Source of the DNA: Pseudomonas phage pPa_SNUABM_DT01
Direction: 5' to 3' (one strand)
Sequence record: MW735835.1
DNA length: 64,000 nucleotides
This document shows, in pieces, positions 39,365-50,490 of the stretch. The position numbers were made by a program, and so were the translations under genes. Below the pieces are notes generated by a model. That model was not told the DNA's origin, did no database searches, and saw only the letters and a program-made list of their open reading frames with translations. Position 1 is the stretch's first letter. The number at the start of each line of letters is the position of its first letter.

Positions 39365-39871
39365 ATGTCTGATAAACGCAGTGGTATCGAGAAACTGACC
39401 AACCCGGAAGCACTTTTGCAGGGCTATTGGCAATCAGTGGTCCACCAGTACCGGGAAACCGATTACATTATCGTGGACGAGGACATCCGCGATATCGTCG
39501 CCAAGATCAACGAAGTTTCCGGGGTCTTGGTGACCGACTGCTGCGCCTCCCATCCGGAGCGTGAGCGTCATAACCTCTACCTGGCCTTCCTCCCAACCAC
39601 CGAAGGCTTTGATTTCCTCGCCGACCTGTATAACCACTTCGTGGGCCAGGTGTTGAACGAGGCAGTCATTGGTAATCTGGTCTCGCAGATCCAATTCCGT
39701 GTTCGTCATCGACAAGTCGATGTGAAATTCCAGGAGTGGGGCACCATTTGGAGCATCCGTCTCCCGGTGGACGATCAGAACGTGAAAGATCGTGCACTCA
39801 CCTGCCTCAGGAGGGCTGTTGACAATGCCATTGGAGATCTTAGACGAGAACCTGTGGGCGATCCAAGCTGA
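39365..39871 (+). CDS. hypothetical protein
   Basis: ATG 39365 with GGAG 8 nt upstream. 168 aa. Confidence 0.6.
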   Translation: MSDKRSGIEKLTNPEALLQGYWQSVVHQYRETDYIIVDEDIRDIVAKINEVSGVLVTDCCASHPERERHNLYLAFLPTTEGFDFLADLYNHFVGQVLNEAVIGNLVSQIQFRVRHRQVDVKFQEWGTIWSIRLPVDDQNVKDRALTCLRRAVDNAIGDLRREPVGDPS

Positions 39872-40286
39872 CACCCGCGTCATCACTGTCAACATGGTGG
39901 GTGCCATGGGTGCAGGAGTCGCCAGAACGGCCAGGAATACCATCCCTGGGCTGTACAAGCACTACCGCAAGATGATCACCCAGATCGAACCCACCCAGTT
40001 CATCACTTACCAACATGACGGCATCCGTTATTTGCTGATTCCCACGAAGCTGGATTGGCGAGACCCTTCGCCACGTGGGTTGGTGGTGCACAATTTCTGT
40101 AAACTGGTGGTCTTAGCCAACCGCCACCGCTTAGGCACCATCGTACTGCCGCCCATGGGGTGTGGGAACGGCCAGTTGGACTGGGAGAATGACATCCAGT
40201 ACCTCTACAAGTCGTTGTTGCCGTATCAAGAGACCAAGTTCATCGCCGCGTTAGGCGACATGAGGAGCAGGAATGGAAGGTCCTAA
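39825..40286 (+). CDS. macro domain protein (ADP-ribose binding / processing)
   Basis: VITVNMVGAMGAGVARTARN resembles the macro signature VNAAN..L..GGGV. TIVLPPMGCGNGQLDWE resembles the second macro motif IAFP.ISTG.YG. AGGAGG Shine-Dalgarno element with a 9-nt spacer. Confidence 0.75.
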   Translation: MPLEILDENLWAIQADTRVITVNMVGAMGAGVARTARNTIPGLYKHYRKMITQIEPTQFITYQHDGIRYLLIPTKLDWRDPSPRGLVVHNFCKLVVLANRHRLGTIVLPPMGCGNGQLDWENDIQYLYKSLLPYQETKFIAALGDMRSRNGRS

Positions 40287-41177: not shown

Positions 41178-41651
41178 GTGAAAGAGAAGAAACAAGTCCG
41201 TCTGGTCAACATCAGCAAAGCCCGCGTACAGAAGATCGATCCGAAGCTGCCATTGGTGTCCATCACCGACCGTTACAGCAACGGCGTCTCCATTCCGTAC
41301 AAGGATCAGCGCCCCTTGTTGCAACTGGAGTTCTTCCCGCGCGACCATGCGCCGGAGATCGCAGTCGAGCACTGCATGACCATCGAGCGCGCAGATCAGC
41401 TGATCAAGTTCGTCGAAGAGCAGCGTGAGGCCGGTGCTGAGGTGATCTACATCCACTGCACCGAAGGTCGTGTGCGCTCCTATTCGGTCTGTGCTGCACT
41501 GGAAAGCCTGCCGGGCTTCTACCATGACCACTCCGATGCCTGCATCAAAACGGGTATCCTGGACCGCTACACCTACAACCTCCTGGGTGATCGTTGCGAC
41601 GCTTACGACGAAGCCCGCTCGGCTGGCGCCGAAGAGGAAGCAGCCTCGTAA
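41178..41651 (+). CDS. Cys-based protein phosphatase (CX5R, dual-specificity-phosphatase-like)
   Basis: VIYIHCTEGRVRS carries the HC-x5-R(S) phosphatase P-loop. GTG start with AGGAG upstream. Confidence 0.7.
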   Translation: MKEKKQVRLVNISKARVQKIDPKLPLVSITDRYSNGVSIPYKDQRPLLQLEFFPRDHAPEIAVEHCMTIERADQLIKFVEEQREAGAEVIYIHCTEGRVRSYSVCAALESLPGFYHDHSDACIKTGILDRYTYNLLGDRCDAYDEARSAGAEEEAAS

Positions 41652-41909: not shown

Positions 41910-42701
41910 ATGAAACAAGTCTACCTCGGCGTCAAAATCATCGTGGGCCAGCCCATGACTCGTGGTGCTTACAACGAGTACCGCGGATGGCAAACCCCGG
42001 AGCGTGAAAACGCTGAAGACGAAGGCTATCTGGTGGAATACCCGGACAGCGCGCCGAACCACCCGGACCATGCCGGGTACATCAGCTGGTCACCCAAGTC
42101 GGTCTTCGATAACAGCCACATCGCCCTTGGCGACGTGTCGAACTTCCCGCCCTTCGCCGTCCGTCTGATCGGCGAGCGCAACCAGCTGGCCAGCAACCTG
42201 GGCAAGCTGAAGACCTTCCTGGAAGGTGACGTTACCCACCTCAGTGAGCGTAACCTCGATCTGCTGAACCGTCAGGTACAGGCACAAGAAGTCCTGCTGG
42301 ACATCCTGAACCAGCGCCTGGATTCGGTTGACCTGGGCGTGAGCGTGTCCACTTCGGTTCGCGTCGAGCTGGACCTGGCCAACAACAACGCCAAAGACCT
42401 GATGGGTCTGGCAATTGCTGCTGGTGCTGAAGGTCAAGGCCCCACCGACGTCATCGTGGCACTCGAAGATGCCAAGATCGTCGATGCCGAGGGCAACGAG
42501 ATCGCCGACTCCAGCGTCGAGATCGAGAACCTGGTGCGTGGTTTCTCCGTGAGCGGCAACATCGGCGAGAACCTCTACGGTGTTGCAGTCTGCCGTGAGC
42601 GTTGCGTAGCCAACGTGCACAGCTCCTTCGTTGAAGAAGGCACCAAGCTGTCCCTGCTGGTCAAGATCGGCAGCCACAACCGCGCGCCAGCTTTCGCGTA
42701 A
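41910..42701 (+). CDS. hypothetical protein
   Basis: AAGGA Shine-Dalgarno element with an 8-nt spacer. 263 aa. Confidence 0.7.
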   Translation: MKQVYLGVKIIVGQPMTRGAYNEYRGWQTPERENAEDEGYLVEYPDSAPNHPDHAGYISWSPKSVFDNSHIALGDVSNFPPFAVRLIGERNQLASNLGKLKTFLEGDVTHLSERNLDLLNRQVQAQEVLLDILNQRLDSVDLGVSVSTSVRVELDLANNNAKDLMGLAIAAGAEGQGPTDVIVALEDAKIVDAEGNEIADSSVEIENLVRGFSVSGNIGENLYGVAVCRERCVANVHSSFVEEGTKLSLLVKIGSHNRAPAFA

Positions 42702-42761: not shown

Positions 42762-42938
42762 ATGTATCGCGTCCTGTCACTCGAAAAGATTCGCCAGCAA
42801 CAAACCCCCGAGGAACTGGAGAACAATCGCCAGAAGACCTTGGAAGCATGCGCTCGTTTCAAAGAGGCTCAAGAATCCTTGGAGAAGCTCTGTGCAGAAC
42901 GAGGCATCGAAGTGCCCGTGATGATGTGCGCTGCCTGA
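42762..42938 (+). CDS. hypothetical small protein
   Basis: GGAGG 8 nt upstream of ATG 42762. 58 aa with a predicted coiled-coil. Confidence 0.4.
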   Translation: MYRVLSLEKIRQQQTPEELENNRQKTLEACARFKEAQESLEKLCAERGIEVPVMMCAA

Positions 42939-42939
42939 T

Positions 42940-43350
42940 GTCGGAGGCTCCCTAGACGTGGATGCGTTGCACGGCTTGCGTCCATTCATGTCAGGGGTGG
43001 TTCCCGGGGTACGGGGAGCCTCCACATTCTCAAGCCTGTACTCTGCCTATGGTATGTCGACCGAAGATTTCTTCCCTCGATGTGCTATGGCCCGAGACGA
43101 ACTGCGATTCAGGGGCGGTCCTGGCTTGAGAAAGGCTCCAGCTTCAACTGGAGTCGAGTCCCAACGAATTACGACAGCTCAAGGCGCTGCTGCGCTTGGA
43201 TTGGGAGATCCCGGTCGGCTGTCACCTGTTCGGAAAAGGCCCGGGTTAGCGGGCATCGGGCCAGCGGCAGCCTTTTGGCAGCGCGCGATAATGGCCGGCA
43301 GCCTACGTGGTAGCCATCCGCCGGCGCCCGGGCCTTTTCCACCTAGTTGT
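42940..43350 (+). ncRNA. candidate structured non-coding leader upstream of the tRNA pair
   Basis: About 410 nt without a credible ORF. Perfect long-range complements GGAGGCTCCC (42946-42955) / GGGAGCCTCC (43012-43021) and GGAAAAGGCCCGGG (43238-43251) / CCCGGGCCTTTTCC (43327-43340). Also a hairpin CTCCAG-CTTCAA-CTGGAG. Confidence 0.35.
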
Positions 43351-43426
43351 TCCGCGATAGCTCAGTTGGTAGAGCAGCAGACTGTTAATCTGTTGGTCCC
43401 TGGTTCGAGTCCAGGTCGCGGAGCCA
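43351..43426 (+). tRNA. tRNA-Asn (anticodon GTT)
   Basis: Cloverleaf by hand. Acceptor TCCGCGA/TCGCGGA, D-arm GCTC-AGTTGGTA-GAGC, anticodon arm GCAGA-CTGTTAA-TCTGT, T-arm CCTGG-TTCGAGT-CCAGG, discriminator G and encoded CCA. Confidence 0.9.
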
Positions 43427-43435
43427 GCTTCACCC

Positions 43436-43512
43436 GGCTCCATAGTTCAGTTGGTTAGAATGCTAGCCTGTCACGCTAGAGGTCAGGGGTTCGAGTCCCC
43501 TTGGAGTCGCCA
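43436..43512 (+). tRNA. tRNA-Asp (anticodon GTC)
   Basis: Acceptor GGCTCCA/TGGAGTC (one G-U pair), D-arm GTTC-AGTTGGTTA-GAAT, anticodon arm CTAGC-CTGTCAC-GCTAG, T-arm AGGGG-TTCGAGT-CCCCT, discriminator G and CCA. Confidence 0.9.
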
Positions 43513-43529
43513 TTTTCACGGATACGATC

Positions 43530-43763
43530 ATGCACGATAGAATCGTTGAACTCGCCAACGCCCATGACGTCACCACCGCTGCTTTCGAAGCGCTCCTGAG
43601 TCAGGAGTTCTTGGCAAGAGTGAGTGTGTTCCATCGTCAGGCGAAGCATGTCACCGAAGTCATCAATCGTTTGCTGGTCGTGGTCCAAGGTGAGGAAACT
43701 CACTACATTGAACTCATGATGATCTTGATTGCTCCTGATCCGAAGTGGGTTCTCGCTCAATGA
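43530..43763 (+). CDS. hypothetical small ORF between the tRNAs and the tRNA-like element
   Basis: 77 aa with a weak Shine-Dalgarno element and mixed codon usage. It may be spurious. Confidence 0.3.
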   Translation: MHDRIVELANAHDVTTAAFEALLSQEFLARVSVFHRQAKHVTEVINRLLVVVQGEETHYIELMMILIAPDPKWVLAQ

Positions 43764-43836
43764 GGACGTGGGGCCAGCCGGTACGGCAGTCGCTCTTGAT
43801 GCTTCTAGGAGTGGGTTCAATTCCCACCCGTCCTCA
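43762..43836 (+). other. tRNA-like element (acceptor stem plus T-arm only; probable degenerate tRNA or tRNA-like structure)
   Basis: GAGGACG...CGTCCTC forms a 7-bp acceptor helix. GTGGG-TTCAATT-CCCAC is a canonical T-arm. No D-arm or anticodon arm can be folded, and there is one extra nucleotide between the T-stem and the acceptor stem. Confidence 0.35.
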
Positions 43837-44219
43837 ACCCATTCAAAGTTTCTGTTGTGCGGCGGCCGCTGTGCAACGGGATGCCGAGAGATAACTCTAG
43901 AAGGTCCAGAATCCGCCGTGGGAGGCAGACTTCCGACCTCTGGGGGCGATTGCAGTCGTCGTTCTCTTGGTTACAGTGCTAGGGACCATCCCGCCCGATA
44001 CGGTGCAAGGCTGCGACGAATTCCACAAACACGACTCCCTAGAGTGCACGCTAGAGGAGCAGCCGTACCTGAGGTCCATCCAGGTGGCGGTGTTGTAGTG
44101 TCACCCTGATGGACTGCTGTACGTTCTGGACTGGTTCCAGCCGCGGCACGTGACTACGGTAGAATAGCAACCGGTTCCGCCTCTGGCTGCCCGCTTGACC
44201 CTCGTTGGCGAGCGGGCAG
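43837..44219 (+). ncRNA. candidate ~400-nt non-coding RNA ending in a terminator hairpin
   Basis: GC-rich with no credible ORF. It ends with a perfect 9-bp hairpin CTGCCCGCT-(15 nt)-AGCGGGCAG followed by TTATGCCG, the terminator family used elsewhere in this window. Confidence 0.3.
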
Positions 44220-44270
44220 TTATGCCGTTTCAACTACTTGGAACTGACTATAACAAGGACATCGGCCAAC

Positions 44271-44648
44271 ATGCACTACTTCCTGTTCTACCCAGCTCTC
44301 AACGCCTCATTCAACGACAGCACGGAACTGCTCGCTAAGTTCATGTGCCTGGGGGAGAATATCGTCGTGGCGATGGAGAAGGGTATTGAGAAGACTAAGC
44401 GAGTGGAGGAGGACGAACTCGAAGCACCACTGCTGCACCTTGTGACTGGCTTCAATGTCCGGCGCATTGAGCAGAAGTTCAACGCCATTGTAGAGAAAGT
44501 GATTGCTCGTTTCGGACAAGGATTGGAGCCCTCTCAGCCGAGCGAGAAAGGTAAACTGTCGATGATCGCCCTCCTGCTTGTACAGGACCGCTGGGACATC
44601 ATCGAGCAAGTAATAGACACTACGCCTTTGGCAATGCTGAGGCCGTAA
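44271..44648 (+). CDS. hypothetical protein
   Basis: AAGGA 12 nt upstream of ATG 44271. 125 aa. Confidence 0.55.
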   Translation: MHYFLFYPALNASFNDSTELLAKFMCLGENIVVAMEKGIEKTKRVEEDELEAPLLHLVTGFNVRRIEQKFNAIVEKVIARFGQGLEPSQPSEKGKLSMIALLLVQDRWDIIEQVIDTTPLAMLRP

Positions 44649-48031: not shown

Positions 48032-48070
48032 ACCCAGGCCAAGACGGCCCGGGCTTTATTTTTTGTTTTG
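48032..48070 (+). terminator. rho-independent terminator
   Basis: CCCAGGCC-AAGAC-GGCCCGGG imperfect stem followed by CTTTATTTTTTGTTTTG. Confidence 0.6.
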
Positions 48071-48117
48071 AAGGAATCCTATGCGTTAATTTTTCTTTTG
48101 TCCGCTAGGGATTCATT

Positions 48118-48723
48118 ATGAGATCTTTACTTATGGCGGGAGCCATGGTCAAGTCCGACATCAGAGGCAGTGTACTGTTCCAGACCAGTGGAACATTCAA
48201 ATGGAAATGTCCTGAAGGAGTCACCAAGGTATCGATAGCCCTTGTAGGTAGCGGTGGCTCTGGTTATTGGGAGAACCGTCAGATTGGTGCTGGCGGTAAC
48301 GTGCGGTTCGTCAACGACGTTCCCGTTGTTCCAGGTACAGAATACAACATCACCATCCCCAGTCAACGTGCAGCGAAGAACCTCAACGCCGATAACAGCA
48401 CCAGCGCTCTTGGCTATACGGCTAACTCTACGTTGTCCGCCACTGTACTGGGTGGTAACGGTCAACAACCACTCCAATCTCTTGGTAGCTCGATGCGAGC
48501 AGGCGGCGCGGTAGGTTATGTTGCCAGTGGTACCACTGGTCAAGGTATCAATCTCCTGACCTTCACTGCAACCGCCCCTTCCAGCGGTGGACGTTACGAT
48601 GGCCAAACCGCCGGCGGTGGTGGTGGCTACAATGGATCGAGTGCAGGTCTTGGTGCCGTGGGTGCCGTCCGCATTCTTTGGGGTAAAGGTAGAGCCTTCC
48701 CTTCCACCGATATTGTGGACTGA
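48118..48723 (+). CDS. glycine-rich protein (possible fiber/structural glycine-rich domain)
   Basis: VSIALVGSGGSGY, GAGGN and a GGGGGYNGS tract. 201 aa. AGGGA Shine-Dalgarno element. Confidence 0.6.
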   Translation: MRSLLMAGAMVKSDIRGSVLFQTSGTFKWKCPEGVTKVSIALVGSGGSGYWENRQIGAGGNVRFVNDVPVVPGTEYNITIPSQRAAKNLNADNSTSALGYTANSTLSATVLGGNGQQPLQSLGSSMRAGGAVGYVASGTTGQGINLLTFTATAPSSGGRYDGQTAGGGGGYNGSSAGLGAVGAVRILWGKGRAFPSTDIVD

Positions 48724-48724
48724 C

Positions 48725-48758
48725 AGCATAGAGCCCGGCATCTGCCGGGCTCTATGCT
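48725..48758. terminator. bidirectional terminator (CATAGAG...CTCTATGC family)
   Basis: A 16-bp stem AGCATAGAGCCCGGCA-TCT-GCCGGGCTCTATGCT between convergent genes. Confidence 0.8.
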
Positions 48759-48759
48759 C

Positions 48760-50490
48760 TTATGCTGCTTCCAGCGCCAGCTCTTTCTCGAACTCTGCCA
48801 GCAATTCCCACGGATCGGGAGCCTTCATCGTCTCGGTCATGATCTCGATCGAGTTCACAGGACCACCTGTAAGGTTGATCCCCACCAGACGTTGCTTGCT
48901 CGCCGTCACCCCGGCAATCCGACAGACCTCGTACATCGTCGTCATCTTCGACAGGTTGAGAATGATCTCACCGTTCGGATACGTCGAACCGATGTCAGCG
49001 TCAGACGTGTACCGCCGCACGTAACTGCGTACCGAGGGCAGGTCCTTGATCATGAACACGCCGTTGGCCTCTACGAGGCTAGTTGGCAAGGTCACAATCC
49101 AGTCATCTTTACCCAGAAGCAGTTTGTCCAGCTCATCTTCCATCCGGTCCGACAACGTACCCGCCACCATCCCATCTTTGAGCATGTCAAAGTAGAAGTC
49201 GTTGACGTTACGCTTCGGGTTCGAGTTGAAGATGCTGTACTCGGACGATCCCGACAGAATGCCAATCTGAGTGTTGAGGTCAGTGACTTTCTTGTCCAGC
49301 AGTTCCACACCCAAGCAGTCGTAGACGTTATACACCACGTAGTTGACTTTGTAGTGCTTCTGCATCTGCATGTGCCATTCGACACTACCAGACGCTGCGG
49401 TGGAGTCACCTGTCGGGAAGTAGAGCTTGCCCCAATCCTCGCCCAGGTTTTTCTTCAGAATTGCATCCAACGCATAGCTGGGTTCTTTACCCTTGGCCCG
49501 ACGGATGTTCCGGTAGACGGCTGCCGAGTCGATCCAGATGTGGCTGGAGGGTGTCTCCACCACGTGCCAACGATCGTACCATGCCAGGTTCTCTGACTTA
49601 CCATCGGCCTTGACCTTGGTTTCAGGACCCCGCTTATAACGGAAGTACTTGAACGGTTCCGGCACTTCCGGCGCACTGAACACCTCAGCCAGGTTGTAGC
49701 CTTCCATCTCCAGCGCACGGAGCATCACCGTGATGTCGAAGTCCATGTTCCAGAAGGACACGAAGTCTGGCTGCCATTCGTGACACTTGTCGATGCATTC
49801 CTTGACCATGGCCCCAGGGGACTTCATGATCTTGATCTCGAACTCGATCCCACGCGGCCTGGTGATGTGACCCAAGTGCTGGTCCAACGCTGCCTTAATG
49901 GTGTTGATCGGATCAGGGATACCGGCAATCCAGGTGTCCAGAATGGTCACGATGGCCTTGTTGTTGAAGGTCACCGTCGAGATGATGATGTCCTTACCCC
50001 CGTTCTCGTTCCACATGTCGGTCTCGGTGTCGAGTACCGCCACCTGGTTCGAGCGGAACAGTCCAGGCCATTTCTCCTGGTACTGACGTTTGATGAGGGT
50101 CGAAGGACTGATGTCGGCACCGTAGATGTATTGGTTCCGGCATAGGGTCTTTAACTGCTGCTTGGGGTTCCCGTAACCCAGACGGCGCACGATCTGTTGG
50201 TTCAGATCCCGCTGAGTGGTCTCACACTGGATAAGCTTATCCATGTACTCCACTTCTTTTTTGTCTTTGTGGTTGCGGTACTTCTCCTTGGTGATCCAGA
50301 AGGGTCGCTTACGGTTCGGATAGAAACGAAGTCGGGTCTGGTGAGTGCCATCCTTCAGATGGACGATCTCTTTGACCGTCAGCAGGTCATCGGTATCGTT
50401 CGCTGCTGATTCGGTATAAATGGCGTGTTTGCACTCGAGCCCAATGATGTCTTCTGGTTTGAAGACAGGTGCTTTCTTAACGACGGTCAT
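48760..50490 (-). CDS. DEDDy 3'-5' exonuclease, family B DNA polymerase exonuclease module (stand-alone)
   Basis: Exo I VAVLDTETD (D-x-E), Exo II FWNMDFDITVM (N-x2-FD) and Exo III VVYNVYDCLGV (Y-x3-D) occur in the PolB order. Start taken as ATG 50490 (AGGAAG Shine-Dalgarno). The track's GTG at 50496 is a less likely start. Confidence 0.75.
   Translation of the reverse strand: MTVVKKAPVFKPEDIIGLECKHAIYTESAANDTDDLLTVKEIVHLKDGTHQTRLRFYPNRKRPFWITKEKYRNHKDKKEVEYMDKLIQCETTQRDLNQQIVRRLGYGNPKQQLKTLCRNQYIYGADISPSTLIKRQYQEKWPGLFRSNQVAVLDTETDMWNENGGKDIIISTVTFNNKAIVTILDTWIAGIPDPINTIKAALDQHLGHITRPRGIEFEIKIMKSPGAMVKECIDKCHEWQPDFVSFWNMDFDITVMLRALEMEGYNLAEVFSAPEVPEPFKYFRYKRGPETKVKADGKSENLAWYDRWHVVETPSSHIWIDSAAVYRNIRRAKGKEPSYALDAILKKNLGEDWGKLYFPTGDSTAASGSVEWHMQMQKHYKVNYVVYNVYDCLGVELLDKKVTDLNTQIGILSGSSEYSIFNSNPKRNVNDFYFDMLKDGMVAGTLSDRMEDELDKLLLGKDDWIVTLPTSLVEANGVFMIKDLPSVRSYVRRYTSDADIGSTYPNGEIILNLSKMTTMYEVCRIAGVTASKQRLVGINLTGGPVNSIEIMTETMKAPDPWELLAEFEKELALEAA

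Follow-up and report, generated by a model that had tools for sequence, protein, structure and literature searches.

Introduction

What is encoded in the 1.3 kb between positions 42,940 and 44,270 of a 64,000-nucleotide (nt) stretch of Pseudomonas phage pPa_SNUABM_DT01 (sequence record MW735835.1; the whole stretch is called the window below), where transfer RNA (tRNA) genes stand among long segments that resemble structured RNA? An initial annotation had described a protein-free RNA island with two tRNAs, a tRNA-like remnant, long inverted repeats and a terminator-capped candidate noncoding RNA (ncRNA) of about 400 nt. Our analysis points, with moderate confidence, to a composite operon of ncRNA and tRNA genes with two conserved structured modules, region A and E3′, outside any described family. 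The cassette between these modules is variable and in this phage is made up of tRNA-Asn, tRNA-Asp, the protein gene ORF77 (ORF, open reading frame), the tRNA-like element and a linker.

The source is a phiKZ-like jumbo phage. A 534-amino-acid (aa) protein encoded 4 kb upstream of the island is 24–33% identical to jumbo-phage proteins of Xanthomonas, Burkholderia, Erwinia, Pseudomonas and Salmonella, and the local genes all lie on the + strand. The best-studied phages of this type form a phage nucleus. Four lineages were compared in all. The window's own lineage includes the strain contigs L015–L022 and L024–L026, which are 96–99% identical to it and were retrieved by exact-protein look-ups. 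The three distant lineages are L027/L028 from a compost metagenome (flanking 263-aa protein 60% identical, 534-aa protein 79% identical), L029 (flanking protein 54% identical to that of the window) and L023 (ORF77 homologue 81% identical). Coding signal per 90 nt came from a codon-usage model, for which 28 long window genes served as the training set.

Results and Discussion

Region A as a Conserved Structured RNA Module

Region A (Table 1) was predicted to fold into 148 pairs, 19 of them G·U, at −206.5 kcal/mol, compared with −169.8 ± 6.1 kcal/mol for shuffled sequences (z = −6.0, + strand); the reverse strand gave z = −2.9. The two long-range complements noted initially were indeed perfect, one of 10 bp forming P1 and one of 14 bp (43232–43245/43327–43340) closing P6. 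The homologue in L029 is collinear and about 70% identical, and it gave z = −6.2. Helices P3, P4, P5 and P6 were recovered in independent single-sequence folds of the window and L029. An RNAalifold consensus of the two sequences contained 79 pairs, 18 of which had changed on both sides and none of which was broken; controls in which the pairing partner was slid by 1–3 columns gave 0–4. The minimum free energy structure of the window alone was also scored on L029 across P3–P5, where 53 of 66 pairs were kept (31 unaltered, 7 with one partner changed and 15 with both partners changed). Slid controls for this test kept 23–32 pairs.

P6, the 3′ domain of region A, was found in the window, L027 and L029. 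Its two small hairpins have the form GCAGY-loop-RCAGC with a conserved A·A mismatch in each. Although P6 is 74% identical between the window and L027, its closing stem carries a compensated one-pair indel (GGCCCGGG/CCCGGGCC vs GGCCGGG/CCCGGCC), and hairpin P6b covaries (GGCAGCC/GGUAGCC vs GGCAGUC/GACAGCC).

Strain comparison showed strong conservation across region A. No substitution was present in the 511 nt from 42846 to 43356, compared with 13 in the preceding 465 nt and 56 in 800 nt of downstream genes of the same strains, whose flanking genes differ by 3–7%. Two further substitution-free stretches spanned 43743–43980 and 44025–44386. No sustained codon-usage signal was detected in region A or in E, the ~400-nt stretch downstream of the tRNA-like element; gene callers left both empty in five independent contigs, and the alignment of region A with L029 contains many indels that are not multiples of three. 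The Rfam 15 covariance models gave no gathering-threshold match for region A or E3′ in the window, and no family at E ≤ 10 for either module in the window, L027 or L029. The initial view that the locus holds structured RNAs rather than junk therefore stands for region A and the last ~200 nt before the terminal hairpin, given conservation above the flanking genes, compensatory changes, strand-specific folding and the lack of coding signal. By our own estimate rather than any tool's score, region A is very probably a functional RNA.

Several known classes were considered and set aside. Group I and group II introns gave no Rfam hit at E ≤ 10, and region A lies between a stop codon and a tRNA rather than between split exons. 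RNase P RNA, 6S, HEARO and riboswitch readings were dropped with no Rfam signal. The neighbouring genes did not suggest a guide RNA, retron or Y-RNA system either: in Pfam and PHROGs searches with about 20 of their products, no reverse transcriptase, TnpB/IscB, Ro protein or RNA ligase came up.

The 3′ Module E3′

The sequence downstream of the tRNA-like element had been taken as one GC-rich, terminator-capped ncRNA of ~400 nt. This unit did not hold together. Conservation is confined to 44029–44219, here called E3′, whereas the linker at 43837–44028 showed no fold signal (z = −0.6), had no detectable homologue and is missing from L027. The G+C enrichment is also marginal, 0.575–0.595 vs about 0.52–0.56 in neighbouring sequence.

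E3′ is 95.0% identical at the nucleotide level between the window and L027, compared with 67% and 61% for the two flanking genes and 74% for P6. The identity starts exactly at CACGAC and collapses immediately after TTATGCCG. Its few substitutions lie where the prediction has loops or unpaired bases. Folding was moderately better than in shuffled sequences, with z = −2.25 for the + strand compared with −1.4 for the − strand. In our judgement, again not derived from a tool, E3′ is probably a functional RNA. Just left of its boundary sits a hypervariable patch (43981–44024) with seven strain substitutions in 44 nt, flanked by none in the 238 nt before and none in the 362 nt after; the changes at 43986–43987 fall in the loop of a small GGGA-NNN-UCCC hairpin.

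Three long-range pairings were tried and rejected as not above chance. These were 43781–43791 of the tRNA-like element with 44112–44122 (11 bp, about 0.09 expected by a rough estimate), 43780–43787 with 44062–44069, and the P2 loop 42965–42975 with 43868–43878. No pairing between region A and E3′ conserved in both the window and L027 was found.

Modular Arrangement in Relatives

The noncoding gap of L027 contains the 5′ domain of region A, then P6, then E3′ joined directly to P6, with no tRNAs and with P3–P5 missing. In the window, 684 nt separate P6 from E3′ and hold the tRNAs, ORF77, the tRNA-like element and the linker. A TTCCAC direct repeat stands at both edges of this segment (43337–43342 and 44021–44026), a pattern that could fit either insertion or microhomology deletion. 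L029 carries a full-length region A followed by a hairpin with a U-tract and, about 130 nt further on, the start of a tRNA-like element. From the layouts of L027, L029 and L023, the conserved units are region A, especially P6, and E3′, and the cassette between them is variable.

Table 1. Coordinates of features in and around the island (window numbering)
Feature	Coordinates	Strand	Basis or description
58-aa small gene	42762–42938	+	directly upstream of the island; positive in-frame codon-usage score; GGAGG ribosome-binding site
Region A	42940–43343	+	~400-nt multi-helix structured RNA module; folding, homologues, covariation
P1	42943–42952/43014–43023	+	predicted helix
P2	42958–42985	+	predicted hairpin
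P2′	42994–43005	+	predicted
P3	43027–43132	+	predicted long hairpin
P4	43134–43155	+	predicted
P5	43173–43223	+	predicted
P6	43232–43340	+	predicted; 14-bp closing stem around two small hairpins
tRNA-Asn(GTT)	43351–43426	+	encoded CCA; ARAGORN; Rfam tRNA model 72.3 bits
tRNA-Asp(GTC)	43436–43512	+	encoded CCA; ARAGORN; Rfam tRNA model 69.5 bits
ORF77	43530–43763	+	77-aa protein-coding gene; codon usage, public calls, homologues, strain substitutions
tRNA-like element	43762–43836	+	7-bp acceptor stem, canonical T-arm, no encoded CCA
Linker	43837–44028	+	first half of the ~400-nt candidate; no fold signal; hypervariable patch 43981–44024
E3′ module	44029–44219	+	~190 nt, ultra-conserved; identity with L027; ends in 13-bp hairpin 44185–44219
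Terminal hairpin	44187–44195/44211–44219	+	9 perfect pairs, extendable to 13 bp (44185–44219); G+C-rich
TATG motif	44221–44224	+	directly after the hairpin; 47 nt before ATG 44271; predicted start G44224
Next downstream gene	44271–44648	+	ATG at 44271

tRNA Genes, ORF77 and the tRNA-like Element

ARAGORN and Rfam confirmed two canonical tRNAs with encoded CCA, back to back and 9 nt apart. In L022, L024 and L025 (96–97% identical overall), tRNA-Asn and tRNA-Asp carry 13 and 6 substitutions, and the spacer has indels plus one change. ARAGORN calls both of these divergent alleles, and the adjoining region A is identical. This looks like tRNA allele replacement by recombination among strains.

The island is not protein-free, and the statement that no credible ORF occurs over ~1.3 kb was overturned by ORF77, which is a genuine gene. 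Its codon-usage score was 10–16, compared with 16 ± 7 in the training genes. Six public contigs carry it as a called gene, its homologues are 97% and 81% identical, and five of its seven strain substitutions fall at codon position 3. No Pfam or PHROG match was found for its product. ORF77 sits between the tRNAs and the tRNA-like element, so the latter does not directly follow the tRNAs. The ORF77 TGA stop (43761–43763) shares 2 nt with the first two bases of the acceptor stem of that element. Cleavage by ribonuclease P (RNase P) at this overlap, with G43762 as the putative site within the stop codon, would leave the ORF77 message without its stop codon. L023 has a 10-nt gap instead of this overlap. 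Two aberrant tRNA genes follow the ORF77 homologue of L023 at 495–620 and 623–702 and have a common acceptor stem with an A·G mismatch. One resembles a tRNA-Arg(tcg) into which 49 nt have been inserted after position 36/37. The anticodon loop of the other is 9 nt long, and ARAGORN calls this gene Ser(aga) by default, or Val(cac) with a 2-nt "intron".

The 75-nt tRNA-like element has both of the features first ascribed to it, a 7-bp acceptor helix (GAGGACG/CGTCCTC) and a canonical T-arm (GTGGG-TTCAATT-CCCAC). It thus has the 7-bp acceptor and the T-loop of form TTCRANN expected of a tRNA, and exactly 42 nt separate the acceptor strand from the T-arm, the length in a tRNA. The T-stem is followed by an extra C before the acceptor strand begins. 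The element was called neither by the Rfam tRNA model nor by ARAGORN with its default settings. At ARAGORN thresholds of 60–70% it appeared only as a degenerate tRNA-Gln(ttg) or Lys(ctt), in runs whose tRNA and transfer-messenger RNA (tmRNA) calls were mostly spurious, at 5–6 per kb over both strands. The tRNA-Gln drawing (60% threshold, anticodon UUG) has a 3-bp D stem, mismatches at two of five anticodon-stem pairs and C33 instead of U33, and so lacks a proper D-arm and anticodon arm. Weak sub-threshold Rfam matches were to mascRNA-menRNA (19.6 bits, E = 0.7, gathering 42.5) and to the T-loop of tmRNA (15.2 bits, gathering 47). Calling this element a remnant was apt in that it is degenerate as a tRNA. 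It is nevertheless maintained rather than decaying, since its interior is identical at 25 of 26 positions in L029, despite 54% identity of the flanking protein there, and it carries no strain substitution.

Terminal Hairpin and TATG Motif

A 9-bp hairpin followed by TTATGCCG was confirmed at the end of the island, where it had been assigned to a terminator family used by protein genes. The recurrence held up: a G+C-rich hairpin followed by TTATG occurs at seven intergenic sites of the window (3899, 7151, 14425, 29328, 44220, 44678 and 48760). The assignment of the tail did not. No U-run follows the hairpin at 44185–44219, whose tail is UUAUGCCGUUU, and the terminator scan gave no call there. 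Late promoters of phiKZ consist of TATG, with the G as the transcription start (+1) (PMC4666361), and the TTATGCCG tail is better read as such a promoter. By analogy with this distant relative, the TATG at 44221–44224 is probably a phiKZ-type late promoter for the gene at 44271–44648, where the non-virion RNA polymerase of the phage would initiate. The site would then consist of a transcript-end hairpin followed by the promoter of the next gene, which would place E3′ at the 3′ end of the upstream transcript.

Proposed Expression of the Island

Under the composite-operon interpretation, the whole stretch would be transcribed rightward as a single precursor that ends at the hairpin 44185–44219, and the next gene would restart from the adjacent TATG promoter. 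Host RNase P and 3′-end tRNA processing may cut the precursor at both tRNAs and at the tRNA-like element, in the manner of tRNA punctuation. These cuts would release region A with a defined 3′ end and would also part the ORF77 message from the downstream RNA bearing E3′. Once released, the modules may remain as stable, folded RNAs and, like GOLLD and ROOL of other phages, would work in trans during infection. Their likeliest mode would be as protein- or RNA-binding scaffolds, with the repeated GCAGC A·A hairpins as candidate binding sites. The sequence comparisons themselves establish structure, strand, modularity, conservation above the coding flanks and the lack of coding signal; co-transcription, processing and action in trans are inferred.

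Several observations weigh against this interpretation. Region A may be a separate transcript in L029, unlinked to the tRNAs, because a terminator-like hairpin follows it there. In L023, a 1.1-kb contig, unrelated sequence lies on both sides of tRNA-Asp and ORF77; these flanks were rejected as homologues of A or E, as they could not be aligned and their common 14-mer is at chance level (E = 1.3). The informative lineages number three for region A and two for E3′, which puts formal covariation statistics (e.g., R-scape) out of reach. E3′ is too conserved to show covariation, with 0 double changes, and its 95% identity could come from recent exchange between phages rather than constraint. Finally, the tRNA-like element has no encoded CCA and no normal D and anticodon arms, and it is an assumption that RNase P would accept it as a substrate.

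Comparison with Known Systems

GOLLD and ROOL are the closest systems in genomic habit, and GOLLD is the closest in layout, but membership in either family fails the model test. In GOLLD, which occurs near phage tRNA islands, the 3′ region is conserved universally and the 5′ region less so, and the linker sometimes contains tRNAs (PMC12286853). Like the present locus, GOLLD (RF01998) is a large structured phage or prophage RNA beside tRNA islands with an obscure function, and the 95% conservation of E3′, the roughly 70–74% conservation of region A and the tRNAs between them repeat its arrangement, a likeness of layout only. GOLLD also forms a homo-oligomeric nanocage. The two differ in several respects. 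In the window, L027 and L029, the GOLLD model matched neither sequence nor structure at E ≤ 10; A plus E3′ amount to ~600 nt, compared with >800 nt for GOLLD; and the locus lies in a phiKZ-like jumbo phage with a protein gene in the linker. ROOL (RF03087), of ~580 nt, is likewise an ornate RNA of phages or prophages that often neighbours tRNA islands; neither a function nor a protein partner is known for it. Its model also found no match at E ≤ 10 in the three sequences, and ROOL is a single compact pseudoknotted domain, unlike the modular locus here with its optional helices (P3–P5).

The tRNA-like element recalls mascRNA at the MALAT1 3′ end and the tRNA punctuation of mitochondria. Here too, a tRNA-shaped element without a working anticodon arm stands at the boundary of two RNAs, and RNase P or RNase Z could cut a precursor there. 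The MALAT1 pathway is eukaryotic, and the mascRNA match lies far below its gathering threshold. phiKZ itself has tRNA genes interspersed with small ORFs, including an Asp-Asn pair and PHIKZ301 between tRNA-Pro and tRNA-Met, but it has no comparable conserved noncoding block of 400 or 200 nt beside that pair. In the T4 tRNA cluster, small stable non-tRNA RNAs (species 1 and 2) are co-transcribed with tRNAs; at about 120–140 nt they are unlike the modules described here.

Alternative Explanations

Region A and E3′ might instead be the 5′ and 3′ domains of one GOLLD-like RNA, with the tRNAs, ORF77 and the tRNA-like element nested in its linker and the domains docking or assembling into a higher-order particle. 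The modules are directly contiguous in L027, the TTCCAC repeat marks both edges of the segment missing there, and the contrast between E3′ (95%) and P6 (74%) follows the conserved 3′ and less conserved 5′ regions of GOLLD with its linker tRNAs (PMC12286853). We nevertheless consider a single RNA rather unlikely in view of the lack of A-to-E3′ pairing conserved in the window and L027, the terminator-like hairpin after region A in L029, the unusual presence of a protein gene within an RNA linker and the unmatched Rfam models of GOLLD and ROOL. E3′ alone could be a cis-acting leader, riboswitch-like or an attenuator, that controls the gene at 44271–44648 through the hairpin at 44185–44219. In the window as in L027, the orthologous gene follows E3′ directly. 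E3′ closes with a strong hairpin, and its sequence is highly conserved while that of the gene diverges. The hairpin with TTATG, however, also follows six other units of the window, which makes it generic punctuation, and TATG fits a promoter that starts the gene's mRNA downstream of E3′. With no U-tract after the hairpin, no terminator-scan call and no riboswitch family match, a leader is improbable. A non-functional region is slightly less probable again; here, a decayed tRNA array or recently exchanged mosaic DNA would owe its hairpins and conservation to history, such as recombination or a selective sweep. Such a history would suit the tRNA-like element as a degenerate tRNA, the short tRNA-like words TCGAGTCCC and GTCAGGGGT in region A, the variable cassette content between lineages and the low strain diversity that extends over the surroundings of ORF77. 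The frequency of CTAG in the island, a word avoided genome-wide, is compatible with foreign origin. Decay would not be expected to leave z values of about −6 in two diverged homologues or compensatory double changes that keep helices across 26–30% divergence. Nor does it account for 0 substitutions over 511 nt while adjacent synonymous sites vary, or for a conserved E3′ block that coincides exactly with structural boundaries. Both the leader and the neutral history are possible, and less likely than the composite operon.

A hidden protein gene, whether frameshifted, recoded or overlapping, was also considered as the cause of the conservation, with a 166-aa ORF (42958–43458) and a 43-aa ORF (43967–44098) as candidates. 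Both frames are open, a weak codon score of up to 9 occurs in frame +2 around 44005, and L027 conserves the 43-aa ORF over its final 22 codons. The 166-aa ORF, open across region A, scored negative and runs through tRNA-Asn; it is an artefact of G+C-rich structured sequence. The alignment with L029 also has the many indels noted above that are not multiples of three. The 43-aa ORF, which overlaps the start of E3′, was rejected as well: its strain changes are mostly non-synonymous, and the 95% conservation extends 130 nt beyond its stop. With neither a start codon nor a ribosome-binding site conserved, this explanation is very improbable. Least probable of all is that the tRNA-like element and E form a tmRNA-like RNA or another tRNA mimic that is charged and enters the ribosome. 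The acceptor stem plus T-arm would suit it, and ARAGORN at a 70% threshold proposed permuted tmRNAs in the window and L027 with the tag EQPYLRSIQVAVL*, the stop codon of the tag frame lying in a hairpin loop. ARAGORN at default settings called none, the relaxed run is the one prone to spurious calls, and the Rfam tmRNA families match nothing beyond the T-loop noted above. The third acceptor pair is G43764–C43833 (G3–C70) and not the G3·U70 alanine identity pair. In L027, moreover, the "tag" region is present, yet a tRNA-like domain is missing over 18.9 kb.

A bolder proposal, which we offer as speculative and doubtful, is that A and E3′ form, as its two domains, a large phage RNA not described before, which would be the first from a phiKZ-like jumbo phage. 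Its layout would be GOLLD-like, with a variable 5′ domain, an almost invariant 3′ domain and a linker open to tRNA genes and even to a protein gene. The RNA would be matured by host tRNA-processing enzymes at the tRNAs and the tRNA mimic, and would serve as a stable machine or scaffold during infection. If this were true, it might self-assemble, or it might handle tRNAs or ribosomes. Few RNAs are as poorly understood as the large structured ones that phages carry beside tRNA genes, GOLLD and ROOL for instance, whose structures are solved and functions still unexplained. Through this locus, the same genomic habit would extend to an independent family in a very different virus. The fused modules of L027 and the modules split by a cassette in the window would constitute a natural experiment on linker tolerance, and this contrast points to tRNA-processing enzymes as the maturation route. 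Two short RNAs (~400 nt and ~190 nt), highly conserved and with sharp boundaries, also come out of the analysis and are amenable to synthesis and direct testing.

Further Searches and Neighboring Sequence

Searches for additional relatives covered several collections. The tRNAs were the only DNA-level matches when the island was compared by blastn with 50,697 phage records, and region A and the tRNA-like element plus E gave none besides the tRNAs. DNA-pattern scans of IMG/VR returned two chance hairpins in actinophage contigs and no further relatives. When flanking proteins were scanned against IMG/VR, the 125-aa and 534-aa proteins had no relatives, and the 263-aa protein drew only DUF2829-domain matches from unrelated phages. 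A JGI metagenome scan gave only the known compost contig and seven chance matches, GTDB genome scans gave no relatives, and a protein search with the 125-aa neighbor found a single strain at 98%. P0009 was rejected as a relative, as it comes from an unrelated phage with a giant polymerase-sized gene. Several contigs among L015–L021 end inside tRNA genes (Logan contigs at about window positions 43397 and 43445, one ENA contig at 43463), and the L029 contig ends inside the tRNA-like element. Few full loci were available partly because k-mers common to several places fragment assemblies at such points.

Gene calls in L022, L024 and L025 include the small gene upstream of the island, likewise with 58 aa, and L029 has a 53-aa homologue at the same position. 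This gene probably belongs to one transcription unit with the RNA island. Further upstream, the genes at 39792–40286, 41178–41651 and 41910–42701 include one for a Macro-domain protein (PF01661, 22.5 bits). The upstream neighbors also include a weak dual-specificity-phosphatase-like protein (18.5 bits, below the cutoff) and a DUF2829/crAss001_48 ("Sequestin") protein whose C-terminal half is lineage-specific. A link of these three proteins to RNA or nucleotide processing is possible.

The tetranucleotide CTAG is strongly avoided in the window, which has 41 sites where base composition predicts ~241. The 1.3-kb island holds nine of them (42952, 43343, 43463, 43476, 43805, 43897, 43979, 44039 and 44051), compared with a mean of 0.84 per 1.3 kb elsewhere. 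The island is exempt from whatever causes the genome-wide avoidance. Downstream, about 700 nt at 48070–48766, carrying a 201-aa ORF with a glycine-rich domain (48118–48723, PF21722), are present in the window and missing from strain L015, and L017 carries a related 196-aa gene.

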